Source of the DNA: Opitutales bacterium
GTDB lineage: Bacteria > Verrucomicrobiota > Verrucomicrobiia > Opitutales > PNEW01
Reading direction: 5' to 3'
NCBI GenBank assembly: GCA_965219535.1
Contig: CBDCNV010000001.1
Coordinates: 1,230,001 to 1,262,000, forward strand
DNA: 32,000 nt
Each line of letters begins with the position of its first letter. Position 1 is the stretch's first letter. Below are positions 3,218 to 22,661 of the stretch, piece after piece. Below the pieces are notes generated by a model that did not search any database, was not told the origin of the DNA, and saw only the letters and a list, made by a program, of their open reading frames with translations. Made by a program: the position numbers and the translations under genes.

Positions 3218-3231
3218 CCTGATTAATACAA

Positions 3232-4416: not shown

Positions 4417-4424
4417 TTAAATTT

Positions 4425-5363
4425 TCAGCTAACTTTATCTGCGACTCGACCTTTTGCCTGGGCTATGATGTCTACATGGACGCGTTCGCTCCAGGCTTGA
4501 ATGAGTTTATTGAAAACGGGTCCCGGTGTGCCACTCCCCACCGTGAAGCTGTTAAAACGAGTCACCGGCAGTATGCAATAAGAGGTGCTGCAAAAAAAGG
4601 CTTCGTCCGCGTTGATAACGTGAAAGGGTTGGATGTCTTCTTCACTCGTTGGTATATCCAATTGCTCTGCTAATTCTAACACCGTGGCGCGACTGACTCC
4701 ATCTAAAGCATTATCAGTTTTTGGTGTTCTTAAAACACCATTGGAGAAAATAAGAAAATTCGCACCCTTATTTTCCGTAAGGTTTCCGTTGAGATCCATA
4801 AAGAGTGAGAATGCTTCTGGATCTACAGCTTTCACTTCAAATTCACCCATGCACATGAACAACCGGCTTTTGTGTTTGATCTTTGAATCTAATGTTTGCG
4901 GTGGGATATGACGAATGGATGGTGTTACGGCGTGCACCCCAGTATCATAAAGATGCGCATAATCTGGTAAAGTAAGAGGTGGACTACTGATGATGAGTAC
5001 CGGGTCGGCAAATTCAAAGCCACCGATAGCCCTTGTCGTTCTCCCCCCGGAGATTTGCTGATTTAACCATACATCCATTTCAGGTTCGAGATGAGGTATA
5101 TTAGCTTCTAAAACGGCGCGTGTTATACGTTCCATTTCATCGGGATCCATGCCCGGATCAATACGGACCGCTTTCATTGAAAGATAGAAACGCTCAATAT
5201 GCTCACGCATTTTGAAAGGTCGATGAGCAAAAGTGCGGGCGCAGTCAATTACCGAATATCCCCAACCCATACTCGAATCTGAGTAGTGAACTTTTACTTC
5301 GGAATCAGGAACCATTTTTCCGTTAAAGTAGGTGATGAATTCTTCTTTGTGTTTCTCGCTCAT
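4425..5363 (-). CDS. aminotransferase class IV (branched-chain amino acid / D-amino acid aminotransferase fold type IV)
   Basis: 312-aa ORF. C-terminal 'GVSRATVLELAEQLDIP..EE.I......ADEAFFCSTSYCILPV' matches the class IV PLP-enzyme pattern. It lies 8 bp upstream of chrA on the same strand. Confidence 0.75.
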   Translation of the reverse strand: MSEKHKEEFITYFNGKMVPDSEVKVHYSDSSMGWGYSVIDCARTFAHRPFKMREHIERFYLSMKAVRIDPGMDPDEMERITRAVLEANIPHLEPEMDVWLNQQISGGRTTRAIGGFEFADPVLIISSPPLTLPDYAHLYDTGVHAVTPSIRHIPPQTLDSKIKHKSRLFMCMGEFEVKAVDPEAFSLFMDLNGNLTENKGANFLIFSNGVLRTPKTDNALDGVSRATVLELAEQLDIPTSEEDIQPFHVINADEAFFCSTSYCILPVTRFNSFTVGSGTPGPVFNKLIQAWSERVHVDIIAQAKGRVADKVS

Positions 5364-5497
5364 TGATTTGTTTATCCTATTTTGGTTGCTGAGAGGCTTA
5401 GTGGAAATAGCTCACAGCGATTTATTAATTTGTATCATTGATGTCAACCGGTATATCACCCCTACTGATCCACTGACAGATAATTAAATATTCCCGA

Positions 5498-6550
5498 TCA
5501 GGGTTTAAGCACAACCCGTCCCGAAACCTGACCTTTCCTGAGATCGGTTAATGCTTCATTTGCATGATCGAGAGGGCGAGTTTCAATAGGAATAGGGGAT
5601 ACCTTGCCAGCTTTAACCAATTCGATTAACTCGAACATTTCTGTTAGGGTGCCCATCTTTGTCCCCTTTATCTTCAGCAATCTTTGCATCACTAAGACCA
5701 GCGGTAAAGATAATGCTCCTCCCATAATACCTGCCGAAACCAGGGTCCCTCCATTGCGTATACTATCGATGCCAAACTGGGCCGTTGACGGCATGCCAAC
5801 GAAATCAATTGCCGCCGCCGCGCCCCCGCCAGTGATTTCCTTAATATACTCGATCGCTGATGAATCACTATTATCAACCGTCTCCTCGGCACCAGCTTCA
5901 CGTGCAACATTCAGTTTATTAGCATCGATATCGGCGACTATCACCTTACCCTTCGCTACATTGGGCGCGATTTTTAATGCACTTAGACCAAGACCTCCGG
6001 CGCCGATAATTACAATCGCATCGGATTCAGTTTTTACTTCTGTTTTCTTGAGCGCACTGTAGGCGGTGAGCCCCGAGCAGGCATAGGTACAGGCAAGTTC
6101 TGTAGGAATACCAGCGTAATCAACCAGGTATTTAGGATGGGGGACAATAACATAATCACTATAGCCCCCACCGCGGAATACACCGATGTATTGCGGTTTT
6201 ACACAAATCATATTTTCATCTCGGGTGCACGCTTTGCATGTTCCGCACCCAATCCATGGATAAACAATGCGTTTTTCCCCTACGGTGATTCCTTGGACTT
6301 CAGGTCCGATCGACTCCACTTCACCGACAACCTCATGCCCCATTGTAAAGGGTGGGGTTAACCCGCGCTCTGAAAACATTAACCGTTCGTCGTTTCCTAG
6401 ATTCAAATAGCCTTCCCAGATATGAAGATCACTGTGACAAACGCCGCAGGCGTCGACACGCATGATTACCTCCGTTCCCATGGGTTCCGGGGTTGGCCTT
6501 TCCCGTTGTTCGAGCGGTTTTCCCCAATCAATCACTTGATAACTGCGCAT
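5498..6550 (-). CDS. zinc-dependent alcohol dehydrogenase (MDR superfamily)
   Basis: 350-aa ORF. Motifs: 'GVCHSDLH' catalytic Zn, 'GHEVVGEV', structural-Zn Cys cluster 'CGTCKACTRDENMC', and Rossmann 'IGAGGLG'. Confidence 0.85.
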   Translation of the reverse strand: MRSYQVIDWGKPLEQRERPTPEPMGTEVIMRVDACGVCHSDLHIWEGYLNLGNDERLMFSERGLTPPFTMGHEVVGEVESIGPEVQGITVGEKRIVYPWIGCGTCKACTRDENMICVKPQYIGVFRGGGYSDYVIVPHPKYLVDYAGIPTELACTYACSGLTAYSALKKTEVKTESDAIVIIGAGGLGLSALKIAPNVAKGKVIVADIDANKLNVAREAGAEETVDNSDSSAIEYIKEITGGGAAAAIDFVGMPSTAQFGIDSIRNGGTLVSAGIMGGALSLPLVLVMQRLLKIKGTKMGTLTEMFELIELVKAGKVSPIPIETRPLDHANEALTDLRKGQVSGRVVLKP

Positions 6551-7250
6551 GACTTATTCCTTTTAGATACTCTATTACATTGTCCACGGGCATCACATCG
6601 CCGAGATCTATATCGATGTCCAGTAAATTTACCTCATGCATAATTTCGCAGCGTTCGCCCACCGCTTCAGCCGGTACGATAATTCGATAGTCGTCAGTTG
6701 CATCCCGGCAAGTGGCATAGATGCAATGACTGGTGCTGACGCCCGTTACAATCAGAGTGTCCACTTGTAATTCCGAAAGAATGGCGTGAAAATTTGTATC
6801 CTTAAATGCGGAAGCGTATTTTTTTAAAATGATCCTTTCAGAAGACCTGTGCTTAAGACGAGGGTCCAACTGCAAAAGGGGTTCATCCCCAGGTTTGAGG
6901 TCCATTTGACACTTCTTATCGCGAGGGCTGGGGGGCGCAGCGGGATCATAATCCAAGGAAGTAAAAAAAATGGGGATTTCCGCTTTCCGCGCAGCCTCGA
7001 GGAGCCGAGCTGTCGCCTCTACCACGGAATCAACATTGCTTCCCATTTGGTGTTGTGGTTGGGTCCAGAAAAGAGCGAGATCTACAACCACAAGCGCCGG
7101 GTTCTCGCCAAATCCTACGCGGCCACCCCAGTTATTTTCAAGATAACGTTCACGTAAATAATTCAGGTGTTTTTTCAGCGGTTCACGCAATTCGTCAGGT
7201 AATCGCAGGTCATTTGATCCGGTAATCTGACGGGTTGATTTATCAGTCAT
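6528..7250 (-). CDS. isochorismatase-family cysteine hydrolase
   Basis: 240-aa ORF. 'ALVVVDL' N-terminal strand and 'LIVTGVSTSHCIYATCRDA' nucleophile-Cys motif. The 3' end overlaps the ADH start by 23 nt. Confidence 0.7.
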   Translation of the reverse strand: MTDKSTRQITGSNDLRLPDELREPLKKHLNYLRERYLENNWGGRVGFGENPALVVVDLALFWTQPQHQMGSNVDSVVEATARLLEAARKAEIPIFFTSLDYDPAAPPSPRDKKCQMDLKPGDEPLLQLDPRLKHRSSERIILKKYASAFKDTNFHAILSELQVDTLIVTGVSTSHCIYATCRDATDDYRIIVPAEAVGERCEIMHEVNLLDIDIDLGDVMPVDNVIEYLKGISHAQLSSD

Positions 7251-7287
7251 CCTTTTACTAATTATCTGTTAATAGCACTCATATATT

Positions 7288-8493
7288 CTAAATACCAGTT
7301 TGAATACGGAATTGCGCGCTGAATATACTGTAACTGATTAAAGCCATTGCAGGAATCACAAATCCGCCCAAACCGGGGATCCATTGTAAACTGATAAGGA
7401 GGAAGAATAAAAGCCGAATTAACCATTTTAAGATGAAACTTTGACTTAAGGGGATATATTGTCGAAAGGGGCCGACGAGCCTGAGCCGATAATAAATGAC
7501 CCCGGGAACGAGGCCTATAACCGGGATAAGACTGAAGAGAAAAGAAATTAAACATACACCGGGAACTCGCGTGCGAATACGGTGGAGGTAATTCCTCGCA
7601 AAATCCTTGTCGGCTAATAATTGATGTCCGCATGCATCGCAGGTTTGATTGACAGAACGTTTTTTAAATCGCGTCGCACAAACGGGGCATCGTTTCTTTG
7701 CCACTAAGAAATAGGGATGTGCTTCAAGATCATCTTCAGCTTTTTTCTTGGACTGGCCCAAAGCTCCCACTTTGCTCGGGTGCTCGCGCTTTTCTCCGCA
7801 TTGGGGACAGGCAATGGCCGTTCGATAGACACTCTCTCCACACTGATTACAATCTACTTTAGATTTTTCCTCCCGATAGGTGACATACTTTTGGGCGATG
7901 AAGAGAATTCCCAAGGCTACGCCATTGACGATAAGCATGAGTATGGGGAAAAACAACAGCGCTAAAATTCCAAAAGCAGCCCAGATATCCTCAACCCAGC
8001 TGATAAAATTTTGAATACCAAAATCGTCGTCTTCGTCAGCAGTACGTAATACTTCCAATAGACCCTTACGCATCCTGCTTGCGATATAAGCAGCGCCGGC
8101 AACGAATACAGTGAAAACGGTGTCGAAGACGCCAGCCTGGGTAATCGTTTTCTCTATAAAATCAATATCTACCGCGCTGATTAAACCCAAAAACGAGAGT
8201 CCCGCTAAAGCTGTTTTTGTGTAACCGTCAATCTCCTGCAATGCTAACCTGGCTTCAGGCACTTTATCCGCCGCCATTTCCAGTATAGATAAGAATCCAA
8301 GGATGGTAAGGGTAGCGCCGTGCGTAAACCATACCGGTTCTTGCCCCACATGATTGACGAGATCGATATTTTTCATGTAGGGGAGCACATCGCCGTAGCG
8401 CAAGGAGAAGGCAGTTATAAACGCGGGAAGGAATGCGCGGGAAGAAAACATCCCGATGGACCCAAAACCGTGCACCAAGGCATTAGTGAGCAT
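7288..8493 (-). CDS. membrane protein: DUF4126-like N-terminal domain fused to double zinc-ribbon and C-terminal TM hairpin
   Basis: 401-aa ORF. The hydrophobic N-terminal half begins 'GFGSIGMFSSRAFLPAFITA', as in DUF4126. The central segment has 'CNQCGESVYRTAIACPQCG' and 'CPVCATRFKKRSVNQTCDACG' (two CxxC...CxxC ribbons). Two further hydrophobic helices lie at the C-terminus. Confidence 0.6.
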   Translation of the reverse strand: MLTNALVHGFGSIGMFSSRAFLPAFITAFSLRYGDVLPYMKNIDLVNHVGQEPVWFTHGATLTILGFLSILEMAADKVPEARLALQEIDGYTKTALAGLSFLGLISAVDIDFIEKTITQAGVFDTVFTVFVAGAAYIASRMRKGLLEVLRTADEDDDFGIQNFISWVEDIWAAFGILALLFFPILMLIVNGVALGILFIAQKYVTYREEKSKVDCNQCGESVYRTAIACPQCGEKREHPSKVGALGQSKKKAEDDLEAHPYFLVAKKRCPVCATRFKKRSVNQTCDACGHQLLADKDFARNYLHRIRTRVPGVCLISFLFSLIPVIGLVPGVIYYRLRLVGPFRQYIPLSQSFILKWLIRLLFFLLISLQWIPGLGGFVIPAMALISYSIFSAQFRIQTGI

Positions 8494-8944: not shown

Positions 8945-11200
8945 ATGGAAAAAAAGCTTATACTAACTCTTACACTATCCTTGGGAATACTTATAAACTG
9001 TGCCTTTGCTCAATCGGGTAGTTTCGATTTTGAGAACGATACCGCGGAGGGGACAGAATTTATCATCGGCCAATCACCGACGAGTATCCATGTAATAAAC
9101 TTTACCCTGGAAACAGTGGACAATCCAGCACTCGCTCATTCAGGCACAAAAGCTCTGGTCCTGGTGCCCGGTGCAACGGAGGGGAAAATACTTTTTGAAA
9201 GGGGAGTGAACAATCTCTCGTTCTATGCCGCCGATACGCAAGGCGGTGGACGCATTGAGTTAAGAGATAAAGTCTTTCTTGTTTTGAACGAAAATGGAGT
9301 TGTAAACGGCCTTCCAGGTAATATCAGTCCAGGCTCAAATCCCCCTCAGCAAAATTTCGTCGCCTTCAGCGGTGTATTCAACGATCTATCGGATCTCAAT
9401 TTTACTAATGGCATCAAAGAAATTAAAATAGTTAACGCTTCCGGACAGGTCTCCATCGATGACCTTACTTTTACCAATGTTGTCGGTCCACCTAACAATA
9501 CTTTTTTTGAGGATTTTTCGGATTTAGATAATCACCCCATTTTTGGGGAAAATTTTGTAAACCGCGTAAATTTTACCCTCGGTCAATCACCGAACACAGC
9601 TCACTTTACTATGGGTGTCGTTACCGCCATCAGTGTCTCAACCTATGGAAGTGCGGGCAGACCCTTTAACCACACTTTCCCATTAGCTCCAGCGCAGGGT
9701 GGTGATTTTGAAAGTGGTTCCTGGCAGGTACTTGATGAAACACAGGGAGAAATAACTTTTGAAGAGACACCGGCGGCGAAGGTTGAATTTTATGCAGTGG
9801 TTGGAGAGGAAGGTGATGGAAGGTTGGATGTTTATGATACGGCAGACAATCTACTCACCTCTACCACCGATATACCTTTAAATATTAGTATTGAATTAGA
9901 GGGCTCGATCTTTACCTTTTTCTCTTTTGTCGCGGAAGAATTAGGTGCACCGGGCGGGATAGGTAGAATTACTTATAATAATGACCCCTCACCACAGGCG
10001 CAGACCGGTGGATTTTTAACTAATATAGCATTGGACGACTTTGGCTGGACGCCGATTGGTGTCCCGTTGGGTGGAGGGGAACCCCCTCCCGCCGAAGCAC
10101 CGGCGATTACCACGCAACCTGCGAGCCAGGAAGTTGCATCCGGCACGGCTATTGCCTTAACGGTCGCAGCAAGCGGTGAGGATCTTACCTACCAGTGGTT
10201 TACCGGTAACAGCGGTGATACTGCCAGTCCCGTAGCCGGTGCCACGAGCGGCACCTTAACCACCGGTGCTCTCACCGCGAGTACGAACTTCTGGGCACAG
10301 GTAACAAACGCCGGCGGTACCGCTGACAGTGAAACCGCGGTGATCACCGTAGCTGCACCGGCTGTTCCCCTCGTGCTCGACGGATCGGGCGATATCGCCG
10401 GTGAAAACATTCAGCATGCCAACGGTAACGTCTTCGACCAGATACTGCTCACCGGAGAATCTGTCCAACTCCAGGCCAAACCGGGACAGATCACCCGCGT
10501 CTCCTTCATGGACGAAAACGAGGACATTGTGCAGGTAGAATTTTCTGGTAACGGTACCTTTACCGTAACCCTCGATCCGGCCACCTTCCTGCCCCCGGCC
10601 ATCCCTCCACGCTACAACCAGGCCGTTGAGTACGTGACGGGCAAACCGAGCGTAGTCATAGATGGAGCGGACGGCAATACCTTCTTCAGTATCTTTACCG
10701 TGGGTAGGATCAACGCGTTTAACCAGGCCCTCTTCCCCGAGGGACAGGTCTATGATGCGCAAGCGGACGTGACCCTCGTTGAAGTTGTAAATTCCACGGG
10801 AATGGGCGGCATACAACTGTCGAACACCGTGTTCAGTGGAAGCACCGGCAAGACCGGTATCGACGCGCGGGGAATACCGATCGGGGTACGCTTAACGATT
10901 GGCGATATCGATGCCAGTGGCGATGCGGTACCGCATATACTCTTTGGCTCAGGCTCTTTCACCGTGCCAGCAGGCAACCCCGGGTTGAGGATCACGGGTG
11001 GAGACTTATTGCAGACAAACGGTGCAGCAGTTGTCGTCGCAGAGAGCGGATCGACGACAACGGGATTTGATACGCTGATCACACAGAACAATTTTAAATC
11101 GGACAACACTCCACAGCCGACCCTGAGCATTGACGCCACCTTCGCTAATGAAGACGGGGATGCAATTACGGTTGCCGTTGAAGAGTTGACGATTGAATAG
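8945..11200 (+). CDS. secreted multidomain protein, paralog 1 of 3 (signal peptide; two lectin/CBM-like modules; Pro-rich linker; Ig-like domain; ~290-aa C-terminal domain of unknown function)
   Basis: The long ORF opens at GTG 8933, but ATG 8945 gives 'MEKKLILTLTLSLGILINCAFA/QS', a classic signal peptide. The 'PAITTQPASQEV..YQWF.GNSGD....GAT...L......AS..FWAQVTN.GG...S..AVITV' block is an Ig-like domain pattern. A strong hairpin terminator follows. Confidence 0.85.
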   Translation: MEKKLILTLTLSLGILINCAFAQSGSFDFENDTAEGTEFIIGQSPTSIHVINFTLETVDNPALAHSGTKALVLVPGATEGKILFERGVNNLSFYAADTQGGGRIELRDKVFLVLNENGVVNGLPGNISPGSNPPQQNFVAFSGVFNDLSDLNFTNGIKEIKIVNASGQVSIDDLTFTNVVGPPNNTFFEDFSDLDNHPIFGENFVNRVNFTLGQSPNTAHFTMGVVTAISVSTYGSAGRPFNHTFPLAPAQGGDFESGSWQVLDETQGEITFEETPAAKVEFYAVVGEEGDGRLDVYDTADNLLTSTTDIPLNISIELEGSIFTFFSFVAEELGAPGGIGRITYNNDPSPQAQTGGFLTNIALDDFGWTPIGVPLGGGEPPPAEAPAITTQPASQEVASGTAIALTVAASGEDLTYQWFTGNSGDTASPVAGATSGTLTTGALTASTNFWAQVTNAGGTADSETAVITVAAPAVPLVLDGSGDIAGENIQHANGNVFDQILLTGESVQLQAKPGQITRVSFMDENEDIVQVEFSGNGTFTVTLDPATFLPPAIPPRYNQAVEYVTGKPSVVIDGADGNTFFSIFTVGRINAFNQALFPEGQVYDAQADVTLVEVVNSTGMGGIQLSNTVFSGSTGKTGIDARGIPIGVRLTIGDIDASGDAVPHILFGSGSFTVPAGNPGLRITGGDLLQTNGAAVVVAESGSTTTGFDTLITQNNFKSDNTPQPTLSIDATFANEDGDAITVAVEELTIE

Positions 11201-11225
11201 TCAGAAATTCATTGGAAACATCTTT

Positions 11226-11259
11226 AAAACCCGCTTTCGTTGTGAAAGCGGGTTTTTTA
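11226..11259 (+). terminator. rho-independent terminator of paralog 1
   Basis: Stem 'acccgctttc' (11229-11238), loop 'gttgt', stem 'gaaagcgggt' (11244-11253), then a T-run. An A-run precedes the stem, so it could act bidirectionally. Confidence 0.8.
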
Positions 11260-11278
11260 TTGGTTCTAGAGCTCGTGT

Positions 11279-11310
11279 TTGACAAACGAGAGTCTGAGAT
11301 TTGTATATAT
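11279..11310 (+). promoter_or_regulatory. putative sigma70-like promoter of paralog 2
   Basis: TTGACA at 11279-11284, followed 17-19 nt later by 'tgtatatat' (11302-11310). The block and the ~80-nt leader are conserved upstream of paralog 3. Confidence 0.45.
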
Positions 11311-11387
11311 TTATTCAGTCACTCTACAGGTTACCACTCATCAATCGCCAAAGACTTTAAATCATAACCAACCCCTACAGTAAGAAA

Positions 11388-13643
11388 ATGTATAAAATAA
11401 AATTAATCACCTGCTTTTGTTTTTCACTCGGAATCCATTTTTTTCCCGTTTTCTCGCAAACGGCCACTTATGATTTTGAGAACGATACCGCGGAGGGGAC
11501 AGAATTTATCATCGGCCAATCACCGACGAGTATCCATGTCATAAACTTTACCCTGGAAACCGTGGATAATCCCGCGCTCGCTCATTCAGGGACCAAAGCC
11601 CTGGTTCTTGTTCCTGGCGCAACGGAGGGTAAAATACTTATGGAAAGAGGCGTTCAGGATCTTCAGCTCTATGTCGCCGATACCCAGGGAGGTGGACGCC
11701 TTGAGTTAAGGGATAAAAATTTTCACGTATTACAAGAGAATGGAGTCGTAGAAGGTTTTCCCGCTGACATCAGTCCGGGGGCTAATCCACCCGCACAAAA
11801 TTTCGTTGCATTCAACAGTGATATCTTCGTTACCACGGATCTCAATTTTACGAATGGCATCAAAGAAATAAAAATTGTTAATCCTTCCGGCCAAGTTTCA
11901 ATCGATGATCTTACTTTTACCAACATGGTAGGTCCGACTAACAATACTTTTTTTGAAGATTTTCCACTTTTAAGTGGTCATCCCATTTTTAAAATACCGG
12001 TTAATCGTGCAAATTTTACCCTTGGTACATCACCGGTAACAGCTACCTTTACGGGTGGTATTGTTACGACCATATTTTATGGTGGCGCGGGTGGTGCCGG
12101 TCGACCCTTTAATCACACTTATCCTTTATCACCCGGTGACATAGCTGAGTTACAATCTGCCTCCTGGCGGGTGCTCGATGAAATGGAAGGGGAAATTAAT
12201 TTTACCGAAACACCGATGGCAAAGGTCGAGTTTTACGCTGCTGTAGGTGAGGAAGGAGATGGAACGATTGAAGTTTACGATACCGAAGATAATCTACTCA
12301 CCTCGACCAATGATATCCCCTTAAATATGAGTTTTGAAATAGAGGGCTTTCCCTTTACCTTTTTCTCTTTTGTCGCAGAAGAATTAGGAGCTCCGGGTGG
12401 CATAGCAAAAATAACATACAATAACGCGCCCTCTCCGCAGGCGCAAACGGGTGGCTTTTTAACGGATATTGCTATCGATGATATTGGCTTCACACCAATC
12501 GGTGTTCCGTTGGGTGGAGGGGATCCTCCCCCTGCTGAAGCACCTGCTATCACCACGCAACCTGCAAGCCAGGAAGTTGCATCCGGCACTGCGATAGCAT
12601 TGACTGTCGCGGCAAGCGGTGAGGATCTAACTTACCAGTGGTTTATCGGTAACAGCGGTGACACCGCTGCCCCTGTCGCGGGTGCGACCAGTGGCACTTT
12701 AACTACGGGAGCCCTTACAGCGAGTACGAACTTCTGGGCACAGGTAACGAACGCAGGAGGTACAGCTGACAGTGATACCGCGGTCATCACCGTAGCAGCA
12801 CCGCCTATTCCCCTCGTGCTCGACGGATCGGGCGATATCGCGGGTGAAAACATTCAGCATGCCAATGGCAACGTCTTCGATCAGATTTTACTCACCGGAG
12901 AGTCCGTCCAACTCCAGGCAAAACCGAACCAGATTACACGCGTCTCCTTCATGGACGAAAACGAGGACATTGTGCAGGTAGAATTTTCTGGTAACGGTAC
13001 CTTTACCGTAACCCTCGATCCAACCACCTTCCTGCCCCCAGCCATACCCCCGCGCTACAACCAGGCCGTGGAGTACGTAACGGGAAAACCGAGTGTGGTC
13101 ATCGATGGAGCAGACGCCAATACCTTCTTCAGCATCTTCACGGTGGGCAGGATCAACGCCTTTAACCAGGCACTGTTCCCCGAAGGACAGGTCTATGACG
13201 CCCAGGCCGATGTGGCCCTCGTGGAAGTAGTCAACTCCACGGGATTGGGAGGGGTACAGTTATCGAATGCTGTGTTCAGTGGAAGCACGGGCAATGTCGG
13301 CTTTGATGCGCGCGGCGTGCCGATCGCGGTACGCTTAACGATCGGTGATATCGATGCTGATGGCGATGCAGTACCTCACATTCTCTTTGGAGAAGGTTCC
13401 TTTACCGTAGCCGCCGGCAACCCCGGGTTAAGGATCACCGGTGGTGACCTCTTGCAGACCAACGGTGCTGCAGTCGTAGTCGCTGAGAGCGGATCTACAA
13501 CCACCGGGTTTGAGACCTTGATCACGCAGAACAACTTTAAATCGGATAATACCCCTCAGCCAACCCTGAGCATTGACGCCACTTTCGCTAATGAGGATGG
13601 AGATGCGATCACAGTTGCCGTTGAAGAATTGACGATTGAATAG
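11388..13643 (+). CDS. secreted multidomain protein, paralog 2 of 3
   Basis: 751-aa ORF collinear with paralog 1. Signal peptide 'MYKIKLITCFCFSLGIHFFPVFSQ'. A conserved promoter-like block lies upstream and a terminator lies downstream. Confidence 0.9.
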   Translation: MYKIKLITCFCFSLGIHFFPVFSQTATYDFENDTAEGTEFIIGQSPTSIHVINFTLETVDNPALAHSGTKALVLVPGATEGKILMERGVQDLQLYVADTQGGGRLELRDKNFHVLQENGVVEGFPADISPGANPPAQNFVAFNSDIFVTTDLNFTNGIKEIKIVNPSGQVSIDDLTFTNMVGPTNNTFFEDFPLLSGHPIFKIPVNRANFTLGTSPVTATFTGGIVTTIFYGGAGGAGRPFNHTYPLSPGDIAELQSASWRVLDEMEGEINFTETPMAKVEFYAAVGEEGDGTIEVYDTEDNLLTSTNDIPLNMSFEIEGFPFTFFSFVAEELGAPGGIAKITYNNAPSPQAQTGGFLTDIAIDDIGFTPIGVPLGGGDPPPAEAPAITTQPASQEVASGTAIALTVAASGEDLTYQWFIGNSGDTAAPVAGATSGTLTTGALTASTNFWAQVTNAGGTADSDTAVITVAAPPIPLVLDGSGDIAGENIQHANGNVFDQILLTGESVQLQAKPNQITRVSFMDENEDIVQVEFSGNGTFTVTLDPTTFLPPAIPPRYNQAVEYVTGKPSVVIDGADANTFFSIFTVGRINAFNQALFPEGQVYDAQADVALVEVVNSTGLGGVQLSNAVFSGSTGNVGFDARGVPIAVRLTIGDIDADGDAVPHILFGEGSFTVAAGNPGLRITGGDLLQTNGAAVVVAESGSTTTGFETLITQNNFKSDNTPQPTLSIDATFANEDGDAITVAVEELTIE

Positions 13644-13672
13644 TTTTATAGTCATTAATTTATAACACCTTT

Positions 13673-13706
13673 AAAACCCGCTTTAGAAATTAAAGCGGGT
13701 TTTTTC
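13673..13706 (+). terminator. rho-independent terminator of paralog 2
   Basis: Stem 'acccgcttta' (13676-13685), loop 'gaaat', stem 'taaagcgggt' (13691-13700), then TTTTT. Relative to the paralog-1 terminator, the top base pair changed C:G to A:T, which is compensatory. Confidence 0.8.
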
Positions 13707-13725
13707 TCGGTTCTGGAGCGCGTGT

Positions 13726-13757
13726 TTGACATACGAGGATCTGGAATTTGTATATAT
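13726..13757 (+). promoter_or_regulatory. putative sigma70-like promoter of paralog 3
   Basis: TTGACA at 13726-13731 and 'tgtatatat' at 13749-13757, homologous to 11279-11310. Confidence 0.45.
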
Positions 13758-13836
13758 TTATTCATTCACGCTACAGGTCACCACTCATCATTCGCCAAAG
13801 ACTTTAAATCATAACCAAACCCCCTAAAGTAAAATA

Positions 13837-16080
13837 ATGTGTAAAATAAAATTAATCACCTGCTTTTGTCTTTCACTCGGAATTCCTTTTTTTTCCGCTT
13901 TCTCGCAAACGGTCACTTATGATTTTGAGAACGATACCGCGGGGGGGACAGAATTTATCATCGGCCAATCACCAACGAGTATACATGTGATAAACTTTAC
14001 CCTCGAGACGGTGGATAATCCCGCACTCGCTCATTCAGGCACCAAGGCCCTGGTTCTAGTTCCCGGCGCAACGGAGGGTAAAATACTTATGGAAAGAGGC
14101 GTACAGGATCTACAGTTCTATGTCGCCGATACCCAGGGTGGAGGCCGCCTTGAGTTAAGGGATAAAAACTTTCAGGTAACACATGAGAATGGAATCGTAG
14201 AAGGTTTTCCCGCTGACATTAGTCCGGGGGCTAATCCACCCGCACAAAATTTCGTTGCTTTCAACAGTGATATCTTCGTCACCACGGATCTCAATTTTAC
14301 GAATGGCATCAAAGAAATTAAAATTGTTAATCCCTCCGGCCAAATTTCAATCGACGACTTGACTTTCACAAATACGGCAGGTCCACCTAACAATATCTTT
14401 TTTGAAGATTTTCCAGATCTTGGTAATCACCCTATTTTTAAAATACCGGTTAACCGTGCAAATTTTACCCTCGGTACATCACCGGTAACAGCCACTTTTA
14501 CGGGTGGTATTGTCACGACCATATTTCACGGTGGTAACGCTGGTGCAGGTCGACCGTTTAATCATACTTATCCCTTATCACCTAGTGATTTAGCTGAGAA
14601 TGAATCTGCCTCCTGGCGGGTGCTCGATGAAATGGAAGGGGAAATTAATTTTACCGAATCACCGATGTCAAAGGTCGAGTTTTACGCTGCTGTAGGTGAG
14701 GAAGGAGATGGGACAATTGAAGTTTACGATACCGCAGATAATCTACTCACCTCAACCAGCGATATCCCCTTAAATATGAGTTTTGAAATAGCGGGCTTTC
14801 CCTTTACCTTTTTCTCTTTTGTCGCTGAAGAGCTAGGGGCTCCGGGGGGGATAGGAAAAATTATCTATAAGAATGCTCCTTCACCCCAGTCGCAAACGGG
14901 AGGCTTTTTAACGGACATTGCTATCGATGATATTGGTTTTACTCCCCTCGGCGTCGAGGGACCCCCTCCGGCTGAGGGACCGGCTATTACAACTCAACCG
15001 ACGAGCCAGGAAGTTGCCTCCGGCACGGCTATTGCCTTAACGGTCGCAGCAAGTGGTGAGGATATTACCTACCAGTGGTTTACCGGTAACAGTGGGGATA
15101 CTGCCAGCCCAGTAGCGGGTGCGACCAGTAGTACCTTAACCACCGGTGCTCTCACCGTGAGCACGAACTTCTGGGCACAGGTAACAAACGCCGGCGGTAC
15201 CGCTGACAGTGATACCGCGGTGATCACCGTAGCTGCACCGGCTGTTCCCCTCGTGCTCGACGGATCGGGCGATATCGCGGGTGAAAATATCCAGCATGCC
15301 AACGGTAACGTCTTCGATCAGATATTGCTCACCGGAGAGTCCGTCCAACTCCAGGCCAAGCCTGGACAGATCACCCGCGTCTCCTTCATGGACGAAAACG
15401 AGGACATTGTGCAGGTAGAATTTTCTGGTAACGGTACCTTTACCGTAACCCTCGATCCAGCCACCTTCCTACCGCCAGCTGTTCCTCCACGCTACAACCA
15501 GGCCGTAGAGTATGTGACGGGCAGACCGAGCGTGGTCATCGATGGGGCTGACGCCAATACCTTCTTCAGTATCTTTACCGTGGGCAGGATCAACGCCTTT
15601 AACCAGGCCCTCTTCCCCGAAGGACAGGTCTATGACGCCCAAGCGGACGTGAGCCTCGTTGAAGTAGTCAATTCCACAGGACTGGGAGGGGTGCAGCTTT
15701 CAAACACCGTCTTCAGCGGAAGCACAGGTAGAGTAGGGGTGGATGCACGCGGAGTACCGATCGCGGTGCGCTTAACCGTCGGCGACATCGATGCCGATGG
15801 CGATGCAGTACCCCATCTTCTCTTTGGAGAGGGGTCCTTTACCGTGCCGGCGGGCAACCCCGGGTTGCGGATCACCGGAGGCGACTTATTGCAGACGAAC
15901 GGTGCCGCGGTCGTCGTCGCGGAGAGCGGATCGACGACGACGGGATTCGATACCCTGATCACCCAGAACAACTTTAAATCGGACAACACACCGCAACCGA
16001 CACTGAGCATCGATGCAACCTTCACCAATGAAGACGGCGATGCCATAGAAGTGGTTATTGATGAGATCACGATTGAATAG
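13837..16080 (+). CDS. secreted multidomain protein, paralog 3 of 3
   Basis: 747-aa ORF collinear with paralogs 1 and 2. Signal peptide 'MCKIKLITCFCLSLGIPFFSAFSQ'. The Pro-rich linker is 4 aa shorter. The upstream block is conserved with that of paralog 2. Confidence 0.9.
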   Translation: MCKIKLITCFCLSLGIPFFSAFSQTVTYDFENDTAGGTEFIIGQSPTSIHVINFTLETVDNPALAHSGTKALVLVPGATEGKILMERGVQDLQFYVADTQGGGRLELRDKNFQVTHENGIVEGFPADISPGANPPAQNFVAFNSDIFVTTDLNFTNGIKEIKIVNPSGQISIDDLTFTNTAGPPNNIFFEDFPDLGNHPIFKIPVNRANFTLGTSPVTATFTGGIVTTIFHGGNAGAGRPFNHTYPLSPSDLAENESASWRVLDEMEGEINFTESPMSKVEFYAAVGEEGDGTIEVYDTADNLLTSTSDIPLNMSFEIAGFPFTFFSFVAEELGAPGGIGKIIYKNAPSPQSQTGGFLTDIAIDDIGFTPLGVEGPPPAEGPAITTQPTSQEVASGTAIALTVAASGEDITYQWFTGNSGDTASPVAGATSSTLTTGALTVSTNFWAQVTNAGGTADSDTAVITVAAPAVPLVLDGSGDIAGENIQHANGNVFDQILLTGESVQLQAKPGQITRVSFMDENEDIVQVEFSGNGTFTVTLDPATFLPPAVPPRYNQAVEYVTGRPSVVIDGADANTFFSIFTVGRINAFNQALFPEGQVYDAQADVSLVEVVNSTGLGGVQLSNTVFSGSTGRVGVDARGVPIAVRLTVGDIDADGDAVPHLLFGEGSFTVPAGNPGLRITGGDLLQTNGAAVVVAESGSTTTGFDTLITQNNFKSDNTPQPTLSIDATFTNEDGDAIEVVIDEITIE

Positions 16081-16383: not shown

Positions 16384-17520
16384 GTGAGTGACAGTGTAAA
16401 ATTTCATTCTTTAGAATTTGTCGCCTATCCTGCGACCGTCCGCACGGAATGGGTGCACGCCTTGTTCCGAGACGATAATGGAATCGTCAGTTTGGTAGAA
16501 ATAATGAAGACGGGTAGTAGGGGAAATGCAGTTAAGTATTTAGTCGAGGGGGTCGAGAAAATTCGTGGAGAGGCAATTGAGAGAGAAGAAGATATACCCA
16601 ACCTTCTCGGTCTTGTTGATGAAAATATTCGAGCGGAACTTGACTTGGCTTGCGCAGTCAGTGCGCTGCGCACCGCAGTAACTCAATTTCAATCAGCATA
16701 TAGAGGTATCAGTCTGACTCAGGAATTAGGTGGTGCGTTATGTGAAAGCATACCGTTGTATGCGAATATAAATAGATCACTCTTAGGAAACCGTTCTCCG
16801 GGGGCATTTGCCCATGCAGCTGAACTGGCGGTTAGAAGCGGCTTCAATGTTATTAAGTGCGCGCCCTTCGATGAAGTTGCAATTACAGATTCAAATGCGG
16901 ACAAACTCAAAAGTGCGGATGCGGGCATACAGCGTGTGGCGGCGATAAAACATACGGTTGGCAATGAAATAACGGTGTTCGTTGACTGCCATCAACGGTT
17001 TGATGAACAAGCCGCGCTCATCATTTTTGAGAAGTTGGCTGAAATTGGAATCGGGTGGTTTGAAGAACCCATACCGGAGGGAAACAATCAAGCCATGGGG
17101 CGTATTTTAAAGGCTATTTCTGTCCCTTTGGCAGGTGGAGAGTGCAGATACGGAAAGTCACATTTTCTGGAATTAATTTCAAGCAACGCCTGTGACATTG
17201 TAATGCCAGACATCAAATTTTGTGGAGGTGTTGCCGAGGCCCAAAGAGTGGGCCAGTCGATAATTGCTGCGGGTGCTAAGTATTCTCCCCATTGCCCTTC
17301 AGGTCCGGTATCTTTATTAGCGAGCGCTCATGCCACGGCAGCGGTTAAGGGGGCCTACTTATTGGAACATGCGGTTAATGAAATCTCGTGGCGAGCAGAT
17401 ATCCTCTCCCCACCGGAACGGATTGAAAAGGGACGATTGTGGTTTCCCGGTGAGAGGGGACTTGGCGCAACCCTCAACCCAAATACGTTGGAAAAACAGG
17501 GTCGCTGTTGGACTCCTTAG
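16384..17520 (+). CDS. enolase-superfamily enzyme (mandelate racemase / muconate lactonizing enzyme family, sugar-acid dehydratase-like)
   Basis: 378-aa ORF with a GTG start. The metal-ligand pattern 'VFVDCHQRFD', 'WFEEP' and 'AGGE' is typical of the MR/MLE C-terminal barrel. Confidence 0.75.
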   Translation: MSDSVKFHSLEFVAYPATVRTEWVHALFRDDNGIVSLVEIMKTGSRGNAVKYLVEGVEKIRGEAIEREEDIPNLLGLVDENIRAELDLACAVSALRTAVTQFQSAYRGISLTQELGGALCESIPLYANINRSLLGNRSPGAFAHAAELAVRSGFNVIKCAPFDEVAITDSNADKLKSADAGIQRVAAIKHTVGNEITVFVDCHQRFDEQAALIIFEKLAEIGIGWFEEPIPEGNNQAMGRILKAISVPLAGGECRYGKSHFLELISSNACDIVMPDIKFCGGVAEAQRVGQSIIAAGAKYSPHCPSGPVSLLASAHATAAVKGAYLLEHAVNEISWRADILSPPERIEKGRLWFPGERGLGATLNPNTLEKQGRCWTP

Positions 17521-19719: not shown

Positions 19720-19832
19720 AAGTTGAATCTTGAGGATTTCATCATTAACTTGCCTCAACGCATGTATAGCTTCACTCTAATTAAAGCTTCGAAGGCAGGT
19801 GTCTAATAAAATCTAGTATGGGGAGAATCCTT

Positions 19833-22661
19833 ATGTCTGAAAAAAATGAATATTTCATAATAAACCACAAAATATCGAAGGTAAAGGTCGTTACGATTGG
19901 TATAATCCTTAGCTCCCTTTTTATCTTTTCACCGCTCTATTCGATGGCGGGAAAACCGGAAAAAGCTGATTTAACGCTACTGACAGAATACTGGGTGCAC
20001 AGCGGATTTTCCGATTTCTCTCAGGGCATTTTTGATAATGGGGGAGCTAATTTATACGTCAATGCCAAGGGCACGATTGAGATGATCAACCACTATGACG
20101 TTAACAACGATGGCTATGTCGACCTCGTTCTCGCGAATGATCATGATAAAATCGAGCGTGGTCCTACCTGGGGCTATATTGTTGATGAAGGTCCGGGCGA
20201 AAACTGGAAACGTTATGAAATGTCTGCCGACAGTGGTTGGATGAGCCGGGTTGCCGACGTGGACGCGGATGGATACCAGGATCTGATTACCGTCAATTGT
20301 TATAATGGAGTGACTTCAGAGTTGCCTGCTTTCATATATTGGGGGGGGGCTGATGGACCGGAGGAGAGTCGGACCGACCTGCCCACGATTGGCGCCTATG
20401 ATGTAGCTATCGTAGACATCAACCGCGATGGTCGACTGGATTTGATTTTCCCTTCGGCTTGGCGAGACAATCATAATCCTGCATTACCCCGGCTGGTTCA
20501 TGTCTATATTCAGGGTGCAGACCGACAATTTAAAGATGAAGGTGAGCGATATAATATGATCGCGACCGGAGCAATATCCATCGCGACGGCTGATTTAAAT
20601 AAAGACGGCTTTCCTGATATTGTTACGGCCAGCTATCGTGCGGGGCAAAGGAATTTGCCATTAAACACCGAGTCGAAAGTTTTCTGGGGAACAGCGGGTG
20701 GAGTCGATAGCGAATCACCTCTTATTTTACCGACTTACGGCGCAAGGCAAGTGATACTGGAAGACCTCAACAGTGACGGAAATACGGATATTACATTTAG
20801 TGGCAGTGATCAGGTTAAGGTCTTCTGGAATAGTGATAAGGGCATAGATACAAGCAGTCCCTTAATCATTGAAGCAAAAGGTGAATCCGGTGAATTTTCA
20901 GAGAATGTCGTGCGTATCGAAATCGCAGACGTCGATAATGACGAAGCATTAGAATTGATGATCGCCACCTCGGAAGGAGTGCAAATCAGGGACGGTAAGA
21001 ATCTTGAGAACATTGAAATGAAACTTCCCGTTAAACATGCTCGTTGGGTAACAGCTGCCGATCTTAATGGCGATAATCGGTTAGAACTTATTGTCAGTAA
21101 AAATTTCGATGAAAATGAATTTAAGACCAAGTCTCCGATATTCTGGAACGGACCGAAAGGCCTTTCATTTGAAGAAGCGAGCTGGGTTCCAACTTATGGT
21201 GTGGTCGGTAATACAGCTGGTGATCTGGATGGAGATGGTCGTCCCGAGGTAATATTCAATAATGTTTATGACGGTCATGTCCATTCCGTGCCTTCCTATA
21301 TTTATTTGGGCAATGAGAAAGCTGATTACGGAGTCGAAAATCGTTTGGAGTTTCACAATAAAAATAGCGGTATATCTCTTATTGCCGACCTCGATTTGGA
21401 TGGATTTCCGGAAGTGGTTTTCAGTACTCCTGATGGACTTCGTATCTACGAAGGGAGCAGGGCGGGACCCAGACAGGATCGATTTGTCGACTTATCAACT
21501 CATGGACATCACGCTGATATGGAGGTTGCTGATTTTAACCGCGACGGATACCTGGACTTGCTTGCCGTCGCTACCGGCGTCTCGGGTGAATACAAACCTT
21601 CACCCCTCTTTTATGGTTCGGCAAACGGATTTTATGAATCAGGCATAGATACCCTGAAATGCGCGGGAATCCGATCGGTCATCGGTGATGTCAATAAAGA
21701 TGGCTATCTTGACGTTTTATTCCACGATAAAGGAGACTTTATACTAATATATACGGGTGATTCTGAAGGCTACTCTGAAGATCGTACGATCAAAGTACCT
21801 TGCCATGGTCTTTTAGATGCGGCAACGCCTAATCTTGCTGACATAAATGATGATGGGTGGCTGGATCTTATTGTTGGCATTCTCGGTCATCGCTTGCGCT
21901 ATAAAGACACCTTGCGAATTTTCTTCGGCGGTCCCAACGGCTACCAAACTGATAATGTGCAAGAATTGCTTGCTGGCTACAGTGGCGGGTTCACCGGGGT
22001 TGCAGATTATAACAATGATGGCGATCTCGACCTCCTGGCAACTTCCTATGCCAATCCGACTTCAAGGACACCACCGGTCCAATTATTTTACGGCAATGGA
22101 AAAACCCTGGATTTCGATAATCCCGTAGACCTTCCAGGATATGCCGCCGGTGCGGTTACCCAGGTCGACTTGAACCGTGATGGGTGGATCGATATCGTTC
22201 TTGGCTGCCATCGCAACGATATTGGGCACCAGGTAGACTCATTGATTTACTGGAATAGCCCACAAGGGTTTTCACCTGACCGGGTTAATGGCATTCCTGG
22301 ATTGGGACCCCATGCGATGACCACCTTTGATCGTGGGAATTCTTATACCCGTGAACCGGTAGAACATTATATTTCCCCTTCCTATGAGATAGGAAATAAG
22401 CGGCCTCGCAGCATACAATGGGTGGCTGAAGAGACGGAACTATTAAAAATGAAGTTTCAGCTTCGTTCGGCAGAGAGCGAAGAAAAATTGGCTGATGCGT
22501 CATGGATGGGACCGAAGGGAGAGGAATCCTTTTTTGAAAGTTCTGGAGAAGAAATTCAGGATATACCAAAGACCGCTCACTGGCTGCAGTATAAAGCCAC
22601 TTTCGTTTCTCCCTACGCCTGCGGTTCGCCTAAACTAAAGGAAGTAAGAATAGAATTATAG
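19833..22661 (+). CDS. FG-GAP/VCBS-repeat protein, 14 repeats (predicted double seven-bladed beta-propeller) with N-terminal signal anchor and C-terminal beta-sandwich
   Basis: The ORF is open from ATG 19818. ATG 19833 is preceded by GGGGAG at a 7-nt spacing. I count fourteen D-x-[ND]-x-D-[GEN]-x-x-[DE]-[LIV] motifs, from 'DVNNDGYVDLV', 'DVDADGYQDLI' and 'DINRDGRLDLI' through to 'DLNRDGWIDIV'. Confidence 0.85.
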   Translation: MSEKNEYFIINHKISKVKVVTIGIILSSLFIFSPLYSMAGKPEKADLTLLTEYWVHSGFSDFSQGIFDNGGANLYVNAKGTIEMINHYDVNNDGYVDLVLANDHDKIERGPTWGYIVDEGPGENWKRYEMSADSGWMSRVADVDADGYQDLITVNCYNGVTSELPAFIYWGGADGPEESRTDLPTIGAYDVAIVDINRDGRLDLIFPSAWRDNHNPALPRLVHVYIQGADRQFKDEGERYNMIATGAISIATADLNKDGFPDIVTASYRAGQRNLPLNTESKVFWGTAGGVDSESPLILPTYGARQVILEDLNSDGNTDITFSGSDQVKVFWNSDKGIDTSSPLIIEAKGESGEFSENVVRIEIADVDNDEALELMIATSEGVQIRDGKNLENIEMKLPVKHARWVTAADLNGDNRLELIVSKNFDENEFKTKSPIFWNGPKGLSFEEASWVPTYGVVGNTAGDLDGDGRPEVIFNNVYDGHVHSVPSYIYLGNEKADYGVENRLEFHNKNSGISLIADLDLDGFPEVVFSTPDGLRIYEGSRAGPRQDRFVDLSTHGHHADMEVADFNRDGYLDLLAVATGVSGEYKPSPLFYGSANGFYESGIDTLKCAGIRSVIGDVNKDGYLDVLFHDKGDFILIYTGDSEGYSEDRTIKVPCHGLLDAATPNLADINDDGWLDLIVGILGHRLRYKDTLRIFFGGPNGYQTDNVQELLAGYSGGFTGVADYNNDGDLDLLATSYANPTSRTPPVQLFYGNGKTLDFDNPVDLPGYAAGAVTQVDLNRDGWIDIVLGCHRNDIGHQVDSLIYWNSPQGFSPDRVNGIPGLGPHAMTTFDRGNSYTREPVEHYISPSYEIGNKRPRSIQWVAEETELLKMKFQLRSAESEEKLADASWMGPKGEESFFESSGEEIQDIPKTAHWLQYKATFVSPYACGSPKLKEVRIEL
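20341..20349 (+). repeat. G9 homopolymer inside the FG-GAP protein gene
   Basis: The codons 'tgg ggg ggg gct' (W-G-G-A) create nine consecutive G residues. This is the longest G/C run I noticed in the window. Confidence 0.9.

Follow-up and report, generated by a model that had tools for sequence, protein, structure and literature searches.

A tandem cluster of three genes from a very large marine Opitutales family, encoding predicted exoproteins with a portable C-terminal domain

The three genes described here form a short tandem array within a very large protein family specific to marine Opitutales (Verrucomicrobiota). Their products end in a conserved C-terminal domain (C-domain), which is an autonomous, portable module without a known relative. 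Our reading, held with about even confidence, is that the family supplies a set of glycan-binding proteins, displayed by way of an anchoring or docking domain peculiar to this lineage. The C-domain would then probably keep a wide range of exported proteins attached to the surface of the cell.

In the window (the whole 32,000-nucleotide stretch that was analysed), the genes lie on the forward strand, as do all features given below. Gene 1 occupies 8945–11200 (751 aa from the ATG at 8945; 755 aa if counted from 8933, where the ORF starts with GTG), gene 2 11388–13643 (751 aa) and gene 3 13837–16080 (747 aa, with a linker four residues shorter). The ORFs agree with in-register direct repeats of period 2,443–2,449 nucleotides (about 2,445; 71–92% identity per 300-nucleotide block), bearing out the head-to-tail triplication of a unit of about 2.45 kb reported in the initial annotation. 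The array is real. Short reads can mis-assemble repeats of about 2.4 kb, but we give practically no credence to an assembly artefact, against which the initial annotation had cautioned, or to a recent trivial duplication without functional meaning. The copies are 13–20% apart in nucleotide sequence (whole-gene identity 80% for genes 1 and 2, 80% for genes 1 and 3, and 87% for genes 2 and 3; dS 0.3–1.4), none of the three is disrupted and each is under purifying selection, the exact gene 2 protein is recorded on at least three independent contigs (135 kb and >1 Mb), each with the 751/751/747 arrangement, and orthologous two-copy arrays occur in two other genomes. Together these observations already refute such a reading.

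Both spacers contain a terminator-like hairpin followed by a conserved block. The hairpin after gene 1 spans 11226–11256 (AAAACCCGCTTTC-loop-GAAAGCGGGTTTT) and its homologue after gene 2 spans 13675–13701 (AACCCGCTTTA-loop-TAAAGCGGGTT), each running into a T-tract, so the terminators noted earlier behind these two copies are indeed conserved. The blocks, at 11258–11387 (5′ of gene 2) and 13703–13836 (5′ of gene 3), form a repeat family (D7) with 86% identity. Neither the hairpin nor the TTGACA block is present 5′ of gene 1 or 3′ of gene 3. Upstream of gene 2, the block contains TTGACA (11279–11284) and a TG-TATATA stretch (about 11302–11309). Because the spacer between them is 19 nucleotides long and the consensus promoter scan made no call for this block, it is promoter-like and its promoter function no more than plausible, although its conservation before copies 2 and 3 is as had been described. 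Since both spacers hold these conserved elements, a terminator and a promoter-like block, the three genes look like independent transcription units, as originally suggested.

The anatomy of the proteins is also as first described. In the gene 2 protein, a signal peptide (residues 1–24, MYKIKLITCFCFSLGIHFFPVFSQ; 11388–11459) precedes module 1, a CBM/lectin-like β-sandwich (residues 25–185; 11460–11942), and the homologous module 2 (residues 186–372; 11943–12503). A Gly/Pro-rich linker (residues 373–385, PLGGGDPPPAEAP; 12504–12542), an Ig-like domain (residues 386–472; 12543–12803) and the C-domain (residues 473–751; 12804–13640) follow. The approximate layout of gene 1 is signal peptide 8945–9016, module 1 9017–9499, module 2 9500–10060, linker 10061–10099, Ig_7 10100–10360 and C-domain 10361–11197; that of gene 3, from module 1 onwards, is 13909–14391, 14392–14952, 14953–14979, 14980–15240 and 15241–16077. 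Signal peptides were judged from the sequence and the N-terminal helix of the AF2 model. That of gene 2 looks like a Sec/SPI type (helix at residues 2–14, hydrophobic core at 6–17), and no canonical lipobox can be read from its sequence. The mature proteins are very acidic and have no cysteine.

Modules 1 and 2 are mutually homologous, as had been proposed (hhalign probability 98.6%, E 7.6e-16, 26% identity). Module 1 has no Pfam match at E≤10, and the modules belong to no Pfam CBM family by sequence. In the predicted model of the gene 2 protein (module 1 pLDDT ~90), they resemble CBM51-type carbohydrate-binding folds: at E 1e-7 to 1e-8 and a probability of 1.0, Foldseek matches them to tandem CBM51, MAM and Vip3 CBM-like domains, with low TM-scores that result from using the whole multidomain model as the query. 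The lectin/CBM-like β-sandwich suggested earlier is thus supported at the level of a predicted fold. The first and last strands of the modules carry conserved acidic residues (FDFE...IDDxxFT), which would be consistent with a structural Ca site. The linker is modelled with pLDDT <50 at residues 374–382. The Ig-like domain belongs to Pfam PF19081, Ig_7 (E 2.6e-08 and 34.5 bits in gene 2; 32–35 bits across the three proteins against a cut-off of 27.3); in the PDB profile and PHROGs searches it matches phage Ig-like domains only.

The C-domain (~280 residues) is all-β and is modelled with high confidence in gene 2 (pLDDT 95.8, pTM 0.92). Its conserved motifs are ENIxH, DIVQVEFSG, YNQ, FSIFTVGxxNAxNQxLFP, YDAxAD, GDIDAxGDAVP, GGDLxQxN and NxKSD. 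The proteins contain a DxDxDG-like loop (GDIDADGDA), of a kind common in extracellular Ca-binding proteins. The C-domain sequence has no match in Pfam, NCBIfam, the PDB profile search, PHROGs or PADLOC, and Foldseek finds none for its model in the PDB (best E 1.1) or BFVD; the earlier view that no characterised family fits therefore stands. Models of the T9SS CTD, PEP-CTERM, LPXTG and autotransporters in Pfam and NCBIfam likewise do not match the proteins, in agreement with the first reading for the first three.

One 4.49-Mb Opitutales chromosome carries at least 62 scattered C-domain genes and a second MAG at least 49, in arrays of 2–4 and as numerous singletons; 46 and 36 genes, respectively, have the canonical architecture. 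We collected 128 relatives, almost all from two Opitutales MAGs, and family members are labelled hypothetical by all sources. The scale of the family had gone unnoticed in the initial annotation; the triplication that it placed foremost is genuine but only a small, local part of a family that is scattered through each genome in some 50–60 or more copies.

Beyond the canonical architecture, the C-domain is fused to RCC1, to trypsin with CARDB and PPC, to CAP, to a PF14099 polysaccharide lyase, to FG-GAP_2 and to a subtilisin protease. It occurs N-terminally, followed by a different tail, and a distant genome has it in two genes side by side. A stand-alone C-domain protein behind a real signal peptide is conserved in at least eight assemblies, and its gene sits inside a sugar-acid/sulfatase gene cluster. 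All carriers examined have a Sec signal peptide. The proposal of a conserved anchor-like C-terminus paired with a variable ligand-binding N-terminus gains strength from this sharing among unrelated passengers, although the domain is not tied to the C-terminus. Attachment to proteases, a polysaccharide lyase, RCC1 and FG-GAP propellers suggests that the C-domain serves a function common to all exoproteins that carry it.

That function might be catalytic. Relatives at 36–45% identity retain three Tyr, an Arg and an Asn invariantly, and a His, a Gln and several Asp/Asn nearly so, a pattern that a catalytic or ligand-binding site would explain no less well than a docking surface. Many CAZymes have a CBM-CBM-Ig-catalytic layout, to which the array proteins would then conform. 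The C-domain could be a novel family of enzymes, carbohydrate-active or of esterase type, with the modules as CBMs that direct one and the same chemistry to different polysaccharide contexts. The setting of the stand-alone protein and the sole, insignificant Foldseek neighbours of the C-domain, β-helix pectin enzymes, point the same way. We nevertheless consider this unlikely: fusions to trypsin-like, subtilisin, CAP, RCC1 and FG-GAP domains typify localisation modules rather than a second catalytic domain, and no enzyme family is matched by sequence or fold. Some 60 paralogues with 90% identity in the C-domain against 44% in a targeting module would also be unusual for enzymes, whose catalytic domains normally diverge along with specificity.

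Alternatively, by analogy with T9SS/CTD, the C-domain might be a secretion tag for an Opitutales outer-membrane translocon that does not necessarily anchor its cargo. The diversity of cargo, dozens per genome, parallels T9SS CTD proteins (T9SS reviews: PMC10202324, PMC12618676), and the Sec signal peptide of all carriers examined would suit such a route. This is improbable, as the domain, at 280 residues, is three times as long as the C-terminal secretion tags that are known, it can also stand N-terminally with another domain behind it, it does not resemble a cleavage signal, and its neighbourhoods contain no conserved translocon gene.

Paralogue identity within one genome is 0.55 for module 1, 0.44 for module 2 (the most variable region), 0.78 for the Ig domain and 0.90 for the C-domain. 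The hypervariable segments of module 2 are mostly loops (residues 194–209, 225–238, 248–266, 308–319 and 344–360 in gene 2). Low pN with high pS among C-domain paralogues (medians 0.06 and 0.57) indicates that this domain is conserved by purifying selection and not by recent homogenisation. Across all domains ω is 0.03–0.19 (0.03–0.07 in the C-domain); in the loops that are hypervariable between paralogues it is 0.08–0.14 between orthologues and ~0.3 after duplication, so that their acceleration is confined to the post-duplication phase. These values do not support the antigenic variation and diversifying N-terminus proposed at first. They also weigh against a variable surface coat for adhesion, antigenic variation or evasion of phages and grazers, with an arms race driving the paralogue repertoire. 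The large size of the family, its variable exposed end, the tandem arrays, the differences in copy number, the gene-conversion tracts and the IS elements frequent near its genes would suit a coat, but one-to-one orthologues keep their loops across species, neither invertible promoters nor a DGR reverse transcriptase nor a shared switch motif was found in the window, and PADLOC gives no match; we regard it as very improbable.

Array size does vary among relatives, as the initial annotation had envisaged: two related genomes have two copies at the equivalent site. Gene 1 has orthologues L002_A (90% nucleotide identity) and L001_A (85%), gene 3 has L002_B (92%), and gene 2 is the extra copy. The Ig region of gene 3 (gene nucleotides ~1150–1650) resembles gene 1, which indicates a gene-conversion tract. 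The array has probably grown and shrunk through unequal recombination, with gene conversion between copies, each keeping its terminator and promoter-like block.

Family neighbourhoods, considered by themselves, abound in sulfatases, enolase-superfamily dehydratases, SDRs, amidohydrolase_2, sugar symporters and SBP5. The only recurrent neighbours are other expanded catabolic families; no gene for a partner, a receptor or secretion is linked to the family, nor did its members yield a common regulatory motif. Planktonic Opitutae of this group are described as algal carbohydrate consumers (PMC6003095; PMC8857213). Under the glycan-binding reading that we prefer, each protein would be exported through its Sec signal peptide. 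Since the loops differ between paralogues and are conserved between orthologues, each paralogue may have a ligand of its own, with glycans, for instance algal polysaccharides, as the likeliest candidates. The Pro-rich linker and Ig-like spacer join the modules to the near-invariant C-domain, whose most probable role is to retain or dock the protein at the cell envelope by binding one common, lineage-specific partner.

Several known systems offer parallels. T9SS cargo of Bacteroidota likewise combines a Sec signal peptide and diverse passengers (proteases, glycan-active enzymes, adhesins, Ig-like spacers) with a conserved domain common to dozens of secreted proteins per genome, and the Ig_7 domain of the array proteins is typical of CHU_C/T9SS proteins. 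The C-domain, however, has no CTD homology in Pfam or NCBIfam, is ~280 rather than ~80–100 residues long, and can be N-terminal or stand alone; no T9SS is known from the host phylum. Type Va autotransporters share the signal peptide, variable passenger (including proteases) and conserved C-terminal domain of ~280 residues, but the array proteins have no PF03797 match, no β-barrel match in the PDB and no C-terminal aromatic residue, the strands are polar, and the domain has N-terminal and solitary occurrences.

Cellulosomal dockerin enzymes and SLH-domain surface proteins also carry a portable, position-independent module that varies little across an organism's many paralogues and brings diverse enzymes and binding modules to a common surface partner, as the C-domain would here. 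The C-domain is unrelated to theirs in sequence or fold and far larger than a dockerin (~70 residues), the host is diderm, and neither a cohesin-like scaffoldin nor an SCWP partner has been identified. The predicted tandem β-sandwiches resemble tandem CBM51 (PDB 2ygm, 7js4), galactose-binding-like CBMs, MAM and Vip3 domains IV/V, although the modules fall outside the Pfam CBM families by sequence and no recognised catalytic domain is attached. Unlike SusE/SusF of Bacteroidota PULs, the array proteins are not lipoproteins, are unrelated in sequence and massively paralogous, and their genes are not next to SusC/D-like transporters; in their proposed role they may nonetheless be alike, with surface-displayed tandem CBM-like β-sandwiches capturing polysaccharide.

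The array consists of three collinear open reading frames on the forward strand: gene 1 (8933 or 8945–11200, 751 aa), gene 2 (11388–13643, 751 aa) and gene 3 (13837–16080, 747 aa). Direct-repeat families run through the array in register, recurring every 2,443–2,449 nt, in agreement with the head-to-tail triplication proposed in the initial annotation. Over the whole genes, copy 1 is 80% identical in nucleotide sequence to each of copies 2 and 3, which are 87% identical to one another. The intergenic spacers are 86% identical to each other (repeat family D7). Comparison of the two reveals a strong hairpin with a T-tract on the + strand after gene 1 (11226–11256) and gene 2 (13675–13701), followed in both spacers by a conserved block containing a TTGACA hexamer; both elements are absent from the outer flanks of the array, before gene 1 and after gene 3. 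The terminators proposed behind copies 1 and 2 are seen as these hairpins. The proposed promoter holds only in part: the block is conserved, but because its −35/−10 spacing is 19 nt and a consensus promoter scan did not call the site, it is termed promoter-like only.

An assembly artefact can be ruled out, as the copies are 13–20% divergent and the same array is found on several contigs; the exact copy-2 protein is encoded on at least three (135 kb and >1 Mb), each with the 751/751/747 arrangement. The window is syntenic with the related chromosome OY829953.1, the flanks being 92–96% identical. A survey of array size in relatives, suggested at the outset, gives three copies in the window against two each at the same site in OY829953.1 and a second related genome, CBDANS01, where the two genes are orthologous to copies 1 and 3. 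Copy 2 is thus the extra copy relative to these genomes. It is not recent, since its dS to copy 3 is ~0.4 over the N-terminal half and ~0.8 over the C-terminal domain. The Ig region of copy 3 (gene nt ~1200–1500) is 91–97% identical to copy 1 and 83–87% identical to its own orthologue in OY829953.1 (L002_B), which indicates that copy 1 was probably the donor in a gene conversion that bypassed copy 2, with a tract at approximately 14990–15490 (gene nt ~1150–1650, + strand). Upstream of the array, a ~4.8-kb block (3205–8033) is inverted relative to the corresponding locus of OY829953.1 (L002, 550–5378). In that chromosome an IS110-family transposase (L002 5703–6635) lies between the inverted block and the array, and has disrupted a DUF4126/zinc-ribbon gene.

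The three proteins share one architecture, described here with the numbering of copy 2. A hydrophobic signal peptide (aa 1–24; assigned on sequence, hydropathy profile and a helix in the AF2 model) precedes two β-sandwich modules (aa 25–185 and 186–372), a Gly/Pro linker (aa 373–385), an Ig_7 domain (aa 386–472) and a C-terminal domain, the C-domain (aa 473–751). The mature proteins are cysteine-free and very acidic. The proposed kinship of the two modules is supported by hhalign (probability 98.6%, E 7.6e-16, 26% identity), and the Ig-like domain is matched in all three proteins by PF19081 (Ig_7, CHU_C associated) at aa ~382–470, with 32.4–35.1 bits against a gathering threshold of 27.3. Beyond this domain, nothing was recognised in the array proteins by Pfam (2025 copy), NCBIfam (June 2026 release), PHROGs or PADLOC. 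The PHROGs phage search matched the Ig segment only, PADLOC matched no defence system, and PDB sequence and profile searches returned Ig-like domains only. Module 1 matches no Pfam family at E≤10 and the sole match of module 2, Big_15 at E 0.18, is taken as chance, so that by sequence the modules are members of no Pfam CBM family. The HMMER search advised in the initial annotation therefore yields Ig_7 alone, both modules and C-domain being absent from Pfam and NCBIfam.

In the full-length AF2 model the modules and the Ig domain are confidently predicted (pLDDT ~90). Foldseek aligned this model in the PDB with the tandem CBM51 structures 2ygm_B and 7js4 (E 1e-7 to 5e-8, probability 1.0; the low TM-scores arise from using the whole 751-aa model as query). 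Further matches at E 1e-7 to 1e-8 were the MAM-Ig ectodomain 2v5y, the CBM-like domains of Vip3 and other CBM-bearing glycosidases. From these matches the modules are predicted to have a carbohydrate-binding-module-type fold, in line with the lectin/CBM-like β-sandwich pattern first read from the sequence.

The C-domain, by comparison, had a pLDDT below 50 in the model built from a paralogue-only alignment, because that alignment is almost invariant there; a confident model was obtained once relatives at 36–60% identity had joined the alignment. It describes an all-β domain of ~280 aa. The AlphaFold and Foldseek check proposed earlier thus finds CBM-like modules and a C-domain without a match in the PDB or BFVD, which makes the modelled C-domain a candidate new domain family or fold. 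It has no internal repeat and no kinship to the modules or the Ig domain, and was not found in IMG/VR viral contigs. Its YNQ motif resembles the PL7 alginate-lyase motif YFKAGxYxQ; this likeness was set aside because Foldseek gave no match to the jelly-roll lyase fold.

An exhaustive search of representatives combined with Pfam scans located the C-domain, at 55–80% identity, at the C-terminus of proteins with differing N-terminal parts: RCC1 propellers, a trypsin-like peptidase with CARDB and PPC domains, a CAP domain, a PF14099 polysaccharide lyase and FG-GAP_2 repeats; subtilisin is a further passenger. A stand-alone form with a genuine signal peptide (P0316) is conserved in at least eight assemblies; elsewhere the C-domain accompanies a single module without the Ig domain (P0329), and it occurs in two adjacent genes of a distant Verrucomicrobial genome. 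In five proteins (P0364, P0371, P0247, P0380 and P0392) it is placed N-terminally and followed by an unrelated tail of ~150–170 aa. These tails open with a conserved 'APxSLxGK' junction in marine members, and the tail is Thr/Ser/Gly-rich in 'Opitutus'-type proteins. The C-domain is a portable, autonomous and strongly constrained module without detectable sequence relatives.

What this module does may be read in several ways. The main rival to a docking role makes the C-domain a new enzyme, for which the heads, i.e. the two N-terminal modules, would serve as CBMs. In favour of catalysis are the many polar residues that stay invariant in the C-domain and its occurrence as a stand-alone protein within a catabolic cluster, but its fusions to proteases, a CAP domain and propellers argue the other way, and we consider the proposal unlikely. 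A pure secretion tag appears less plausible still, given the size of the domain and its N-terminal occurrences. The C-domain is common to proteases, a lyase, propellers and binding modules, and is 90% identical among about 60 paralogues but only 36–45% identical in distant species. On these grounds, the reading that it behaves like a localisation or docking module co-evolving with one lineage-specific partner is given an even chance of being correct.

The array belongs to a very large lineage-specific family. A homology search returned at least 574 matches, the best 120 of which are unnamed proteins of 684–758 aa (722–758 aa in 119), 63–94% identical. Of the 128 relatives found by scanning one genome per species in GTDB, nearly all belong to two Opitutales MAGs; the Sargasso Sea single-cell genome Opi.OSU.00C (PMC6003095) is a further source. 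Counted in the DNA fetched around matches, OY829953.1 (a chromosome of 4.49 Mb) has at least 62 distinct C-domain copies and CBDANS01 at least 49; they comprise many singletons and arrays of 2–4. The canonical architecture of two modules, Ig domain and C-domain is found in 46 and 36 genes, respectively, and the family takes up roughly 2–3% of a 4.5-Mb genome. Every source annotates it as 'hypothetical protein', and literature searches returned no description of it.

Within one genome, median paralogue identity rises from 0.55 in module 1 and 0.44 in module 2 to 0.78 in the Ig domain and 0.90 in the C-domain. The uniformity of the C-domain is due mainly to purifying selection, since paralogue pairs have a median pN of 0.06 against a pS of 0.57 (dS about 1); the 25% of pairs with pS <0.5 point to occasional gene conversion as well. 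Omega is 0.03–0.19 in every domain. The segments that are hypervariable among paralogues, mostly loops of module 2, are conserved between orthologues (omega 0.08–0.14) and evolve faster only after duplication, when omega reaches ~0.3 (copy 2 against copy 3 or L002_B) while the framework stays at 0.08. This pattern would fit a set of paralogues whose specificities are distinct and stable; it speaks against antigenic variation in an arms race, an option of the initial annotation that is rejected on the omega values. Antigenic variation of the family is accordingly weakened as an explanation, and we regard it as very improbable. A sharp GC3 step is seen in every family gene (the three copies and 43 OY829953.1 paralogues), from 0.34–0.37 in module 2 and ~0.45 in module 1 to ~0.6 in the Ig domain and 0.61–0.65 in the C-domain, against a genome background of 0.49 ± 0.07; the step could stem from GC-biased gene conversion acting on the conserved 3′ halves or from selection on codons.

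Ordinary chromosomal genes flank the array in the window, and many fit sugar-acid catabolism: Amidohydrolase_2 (116–958), Zn-ADH (5498–6550), an enolase-superfamily enzyme (MR_MLE, 16384–17520) directly downstream of the array, an SDR (29298–30083) and an HpcH/HpaI aldolase (30111–30989). Together, the genes around the array resemble what is presumably a non-phosphorylative deoxy-sugar acid pathway of the fucose/rhamnose type. Published work describes marine Opitutales of this kind as feeding on polysaccharides from algae, which are often sulfated (PMC6003095; PMC8857213). Two other large proteins are encoded in the window, one of 947 aa with FG-GAP/VCBS repeats (19818–22661, +) and one of 857 aa with CarboxypepD_reg as its sole recognised domain (26458–29031, +); neither carries domains of the array family. 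An Rfam Acido-Lenti-1 RNA motif (RF01687; 3126–3172, +; 37.1 bits against a gathering score of 37, full model) sits in the spacer adjoining a chromate-transporter gene. Across 67 family loci the recurrent neighbours are PhyH-like dioxygenases, sulfatases, Na+/solute symporters (SSS), SBP5, SDR, FG-GAP/VCBS, Sel1, the enolase superfamily and IS3 fragments. Clustering of ~1,090 ORFs from these loci gave no dedicated partner gene, only other expanded families, and the contexts of stand-alone and distant C-domain members were equally uninformative. In the ~1.4 Mb of DNA fetched from OY829953.1 and CBDANS01 there are 51 PhyH-like dioxygenases, 39 IS3-type transposase fragments, 26 SSS symporters, 26 SBP5 and 15 sulfatases. 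The regions upstream of 82 paralogues share no motif and are simply AT-rich.

Membership in established sorting and anchoring systems was rejected from the database searches. T9SS cargo is defined by a C-terminal CTD of ~80–100 aa, whereas the array proteins lack a Por_Secre_tail/CHU_C match in Pfam (E≤1 full length, E≤10 C-domain) and in NCBIfam (E≤1). They end in ...VAVEELTIE or ...VVIDEITIE, without a hydrophobic segment, and PEP-CTERM, LPXTG and other small tripartite signals (motif, hydrophobic helix, basic tail) have no NCBIfam match, upholding the absences first reported; MYXO-CTERM-type signals, which contain Cys, are excluded because the mature proteins have none. Dockerin (PF00404) and SLH (PF00395) are without Pfam matches, and their partners, cohesin or pyruvylated SCWP, have no recurrent counterpart near family members in the 67 loci. 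A type Va autotransporter ends in a 12-stranded outer-membrane β-barrel (PF03797) with an aromatic last residue, whereas here the last residue is Glu, neither PF03797 nor a barrel in the PDB is matched, and the C-domain also occurs N-terminally. Targets of diversity-generating retroelements lie near a reverse transcriptase and a template repeat and vary in a C-terminal region, but here variability is spread over N-terminal loops conserved between orthologues and no reverse transcriptase is found among the window ORFs, ruling out this class.

The family thus combines a real tandem array, CBM-like heads and a portable C-domain in a modular architecture. The heads would bind differing glycans, and the C-domain may supply a function shared by many exoproteins. 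Marine Verrucomicrobiota specialise in breaking down recalcitrant sulfated polysaccharides of algae, and are not known to have the SusC/D and T9SS machinery by which Bacteroidota capture their substrates. Since variable CBM-like heads are joined to a constrained domain shared with secreted proteases and lyases, the family is a testable candidate for how these cells display binding proteins and enzymes; defining the C-domain and module families would also better annotate many ocean metagenomes. In its proposed role the C-domain resembles the dockerin, the SLH domain and the T9SS CTD alike. More tentatively, it could be a previously unseen fold by which an undescribed surface display or secretion system, specific to marine Opitutales, recognises or anchors its proteins. 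If so, the cell would gain at least 60 different glycan-binding proteins, proteases and lyases through this system, which would be the Verrucomicrobial answer to the T9SS/SusCDEF toolkit with which Bacteroidota capture algal polysaccharides.
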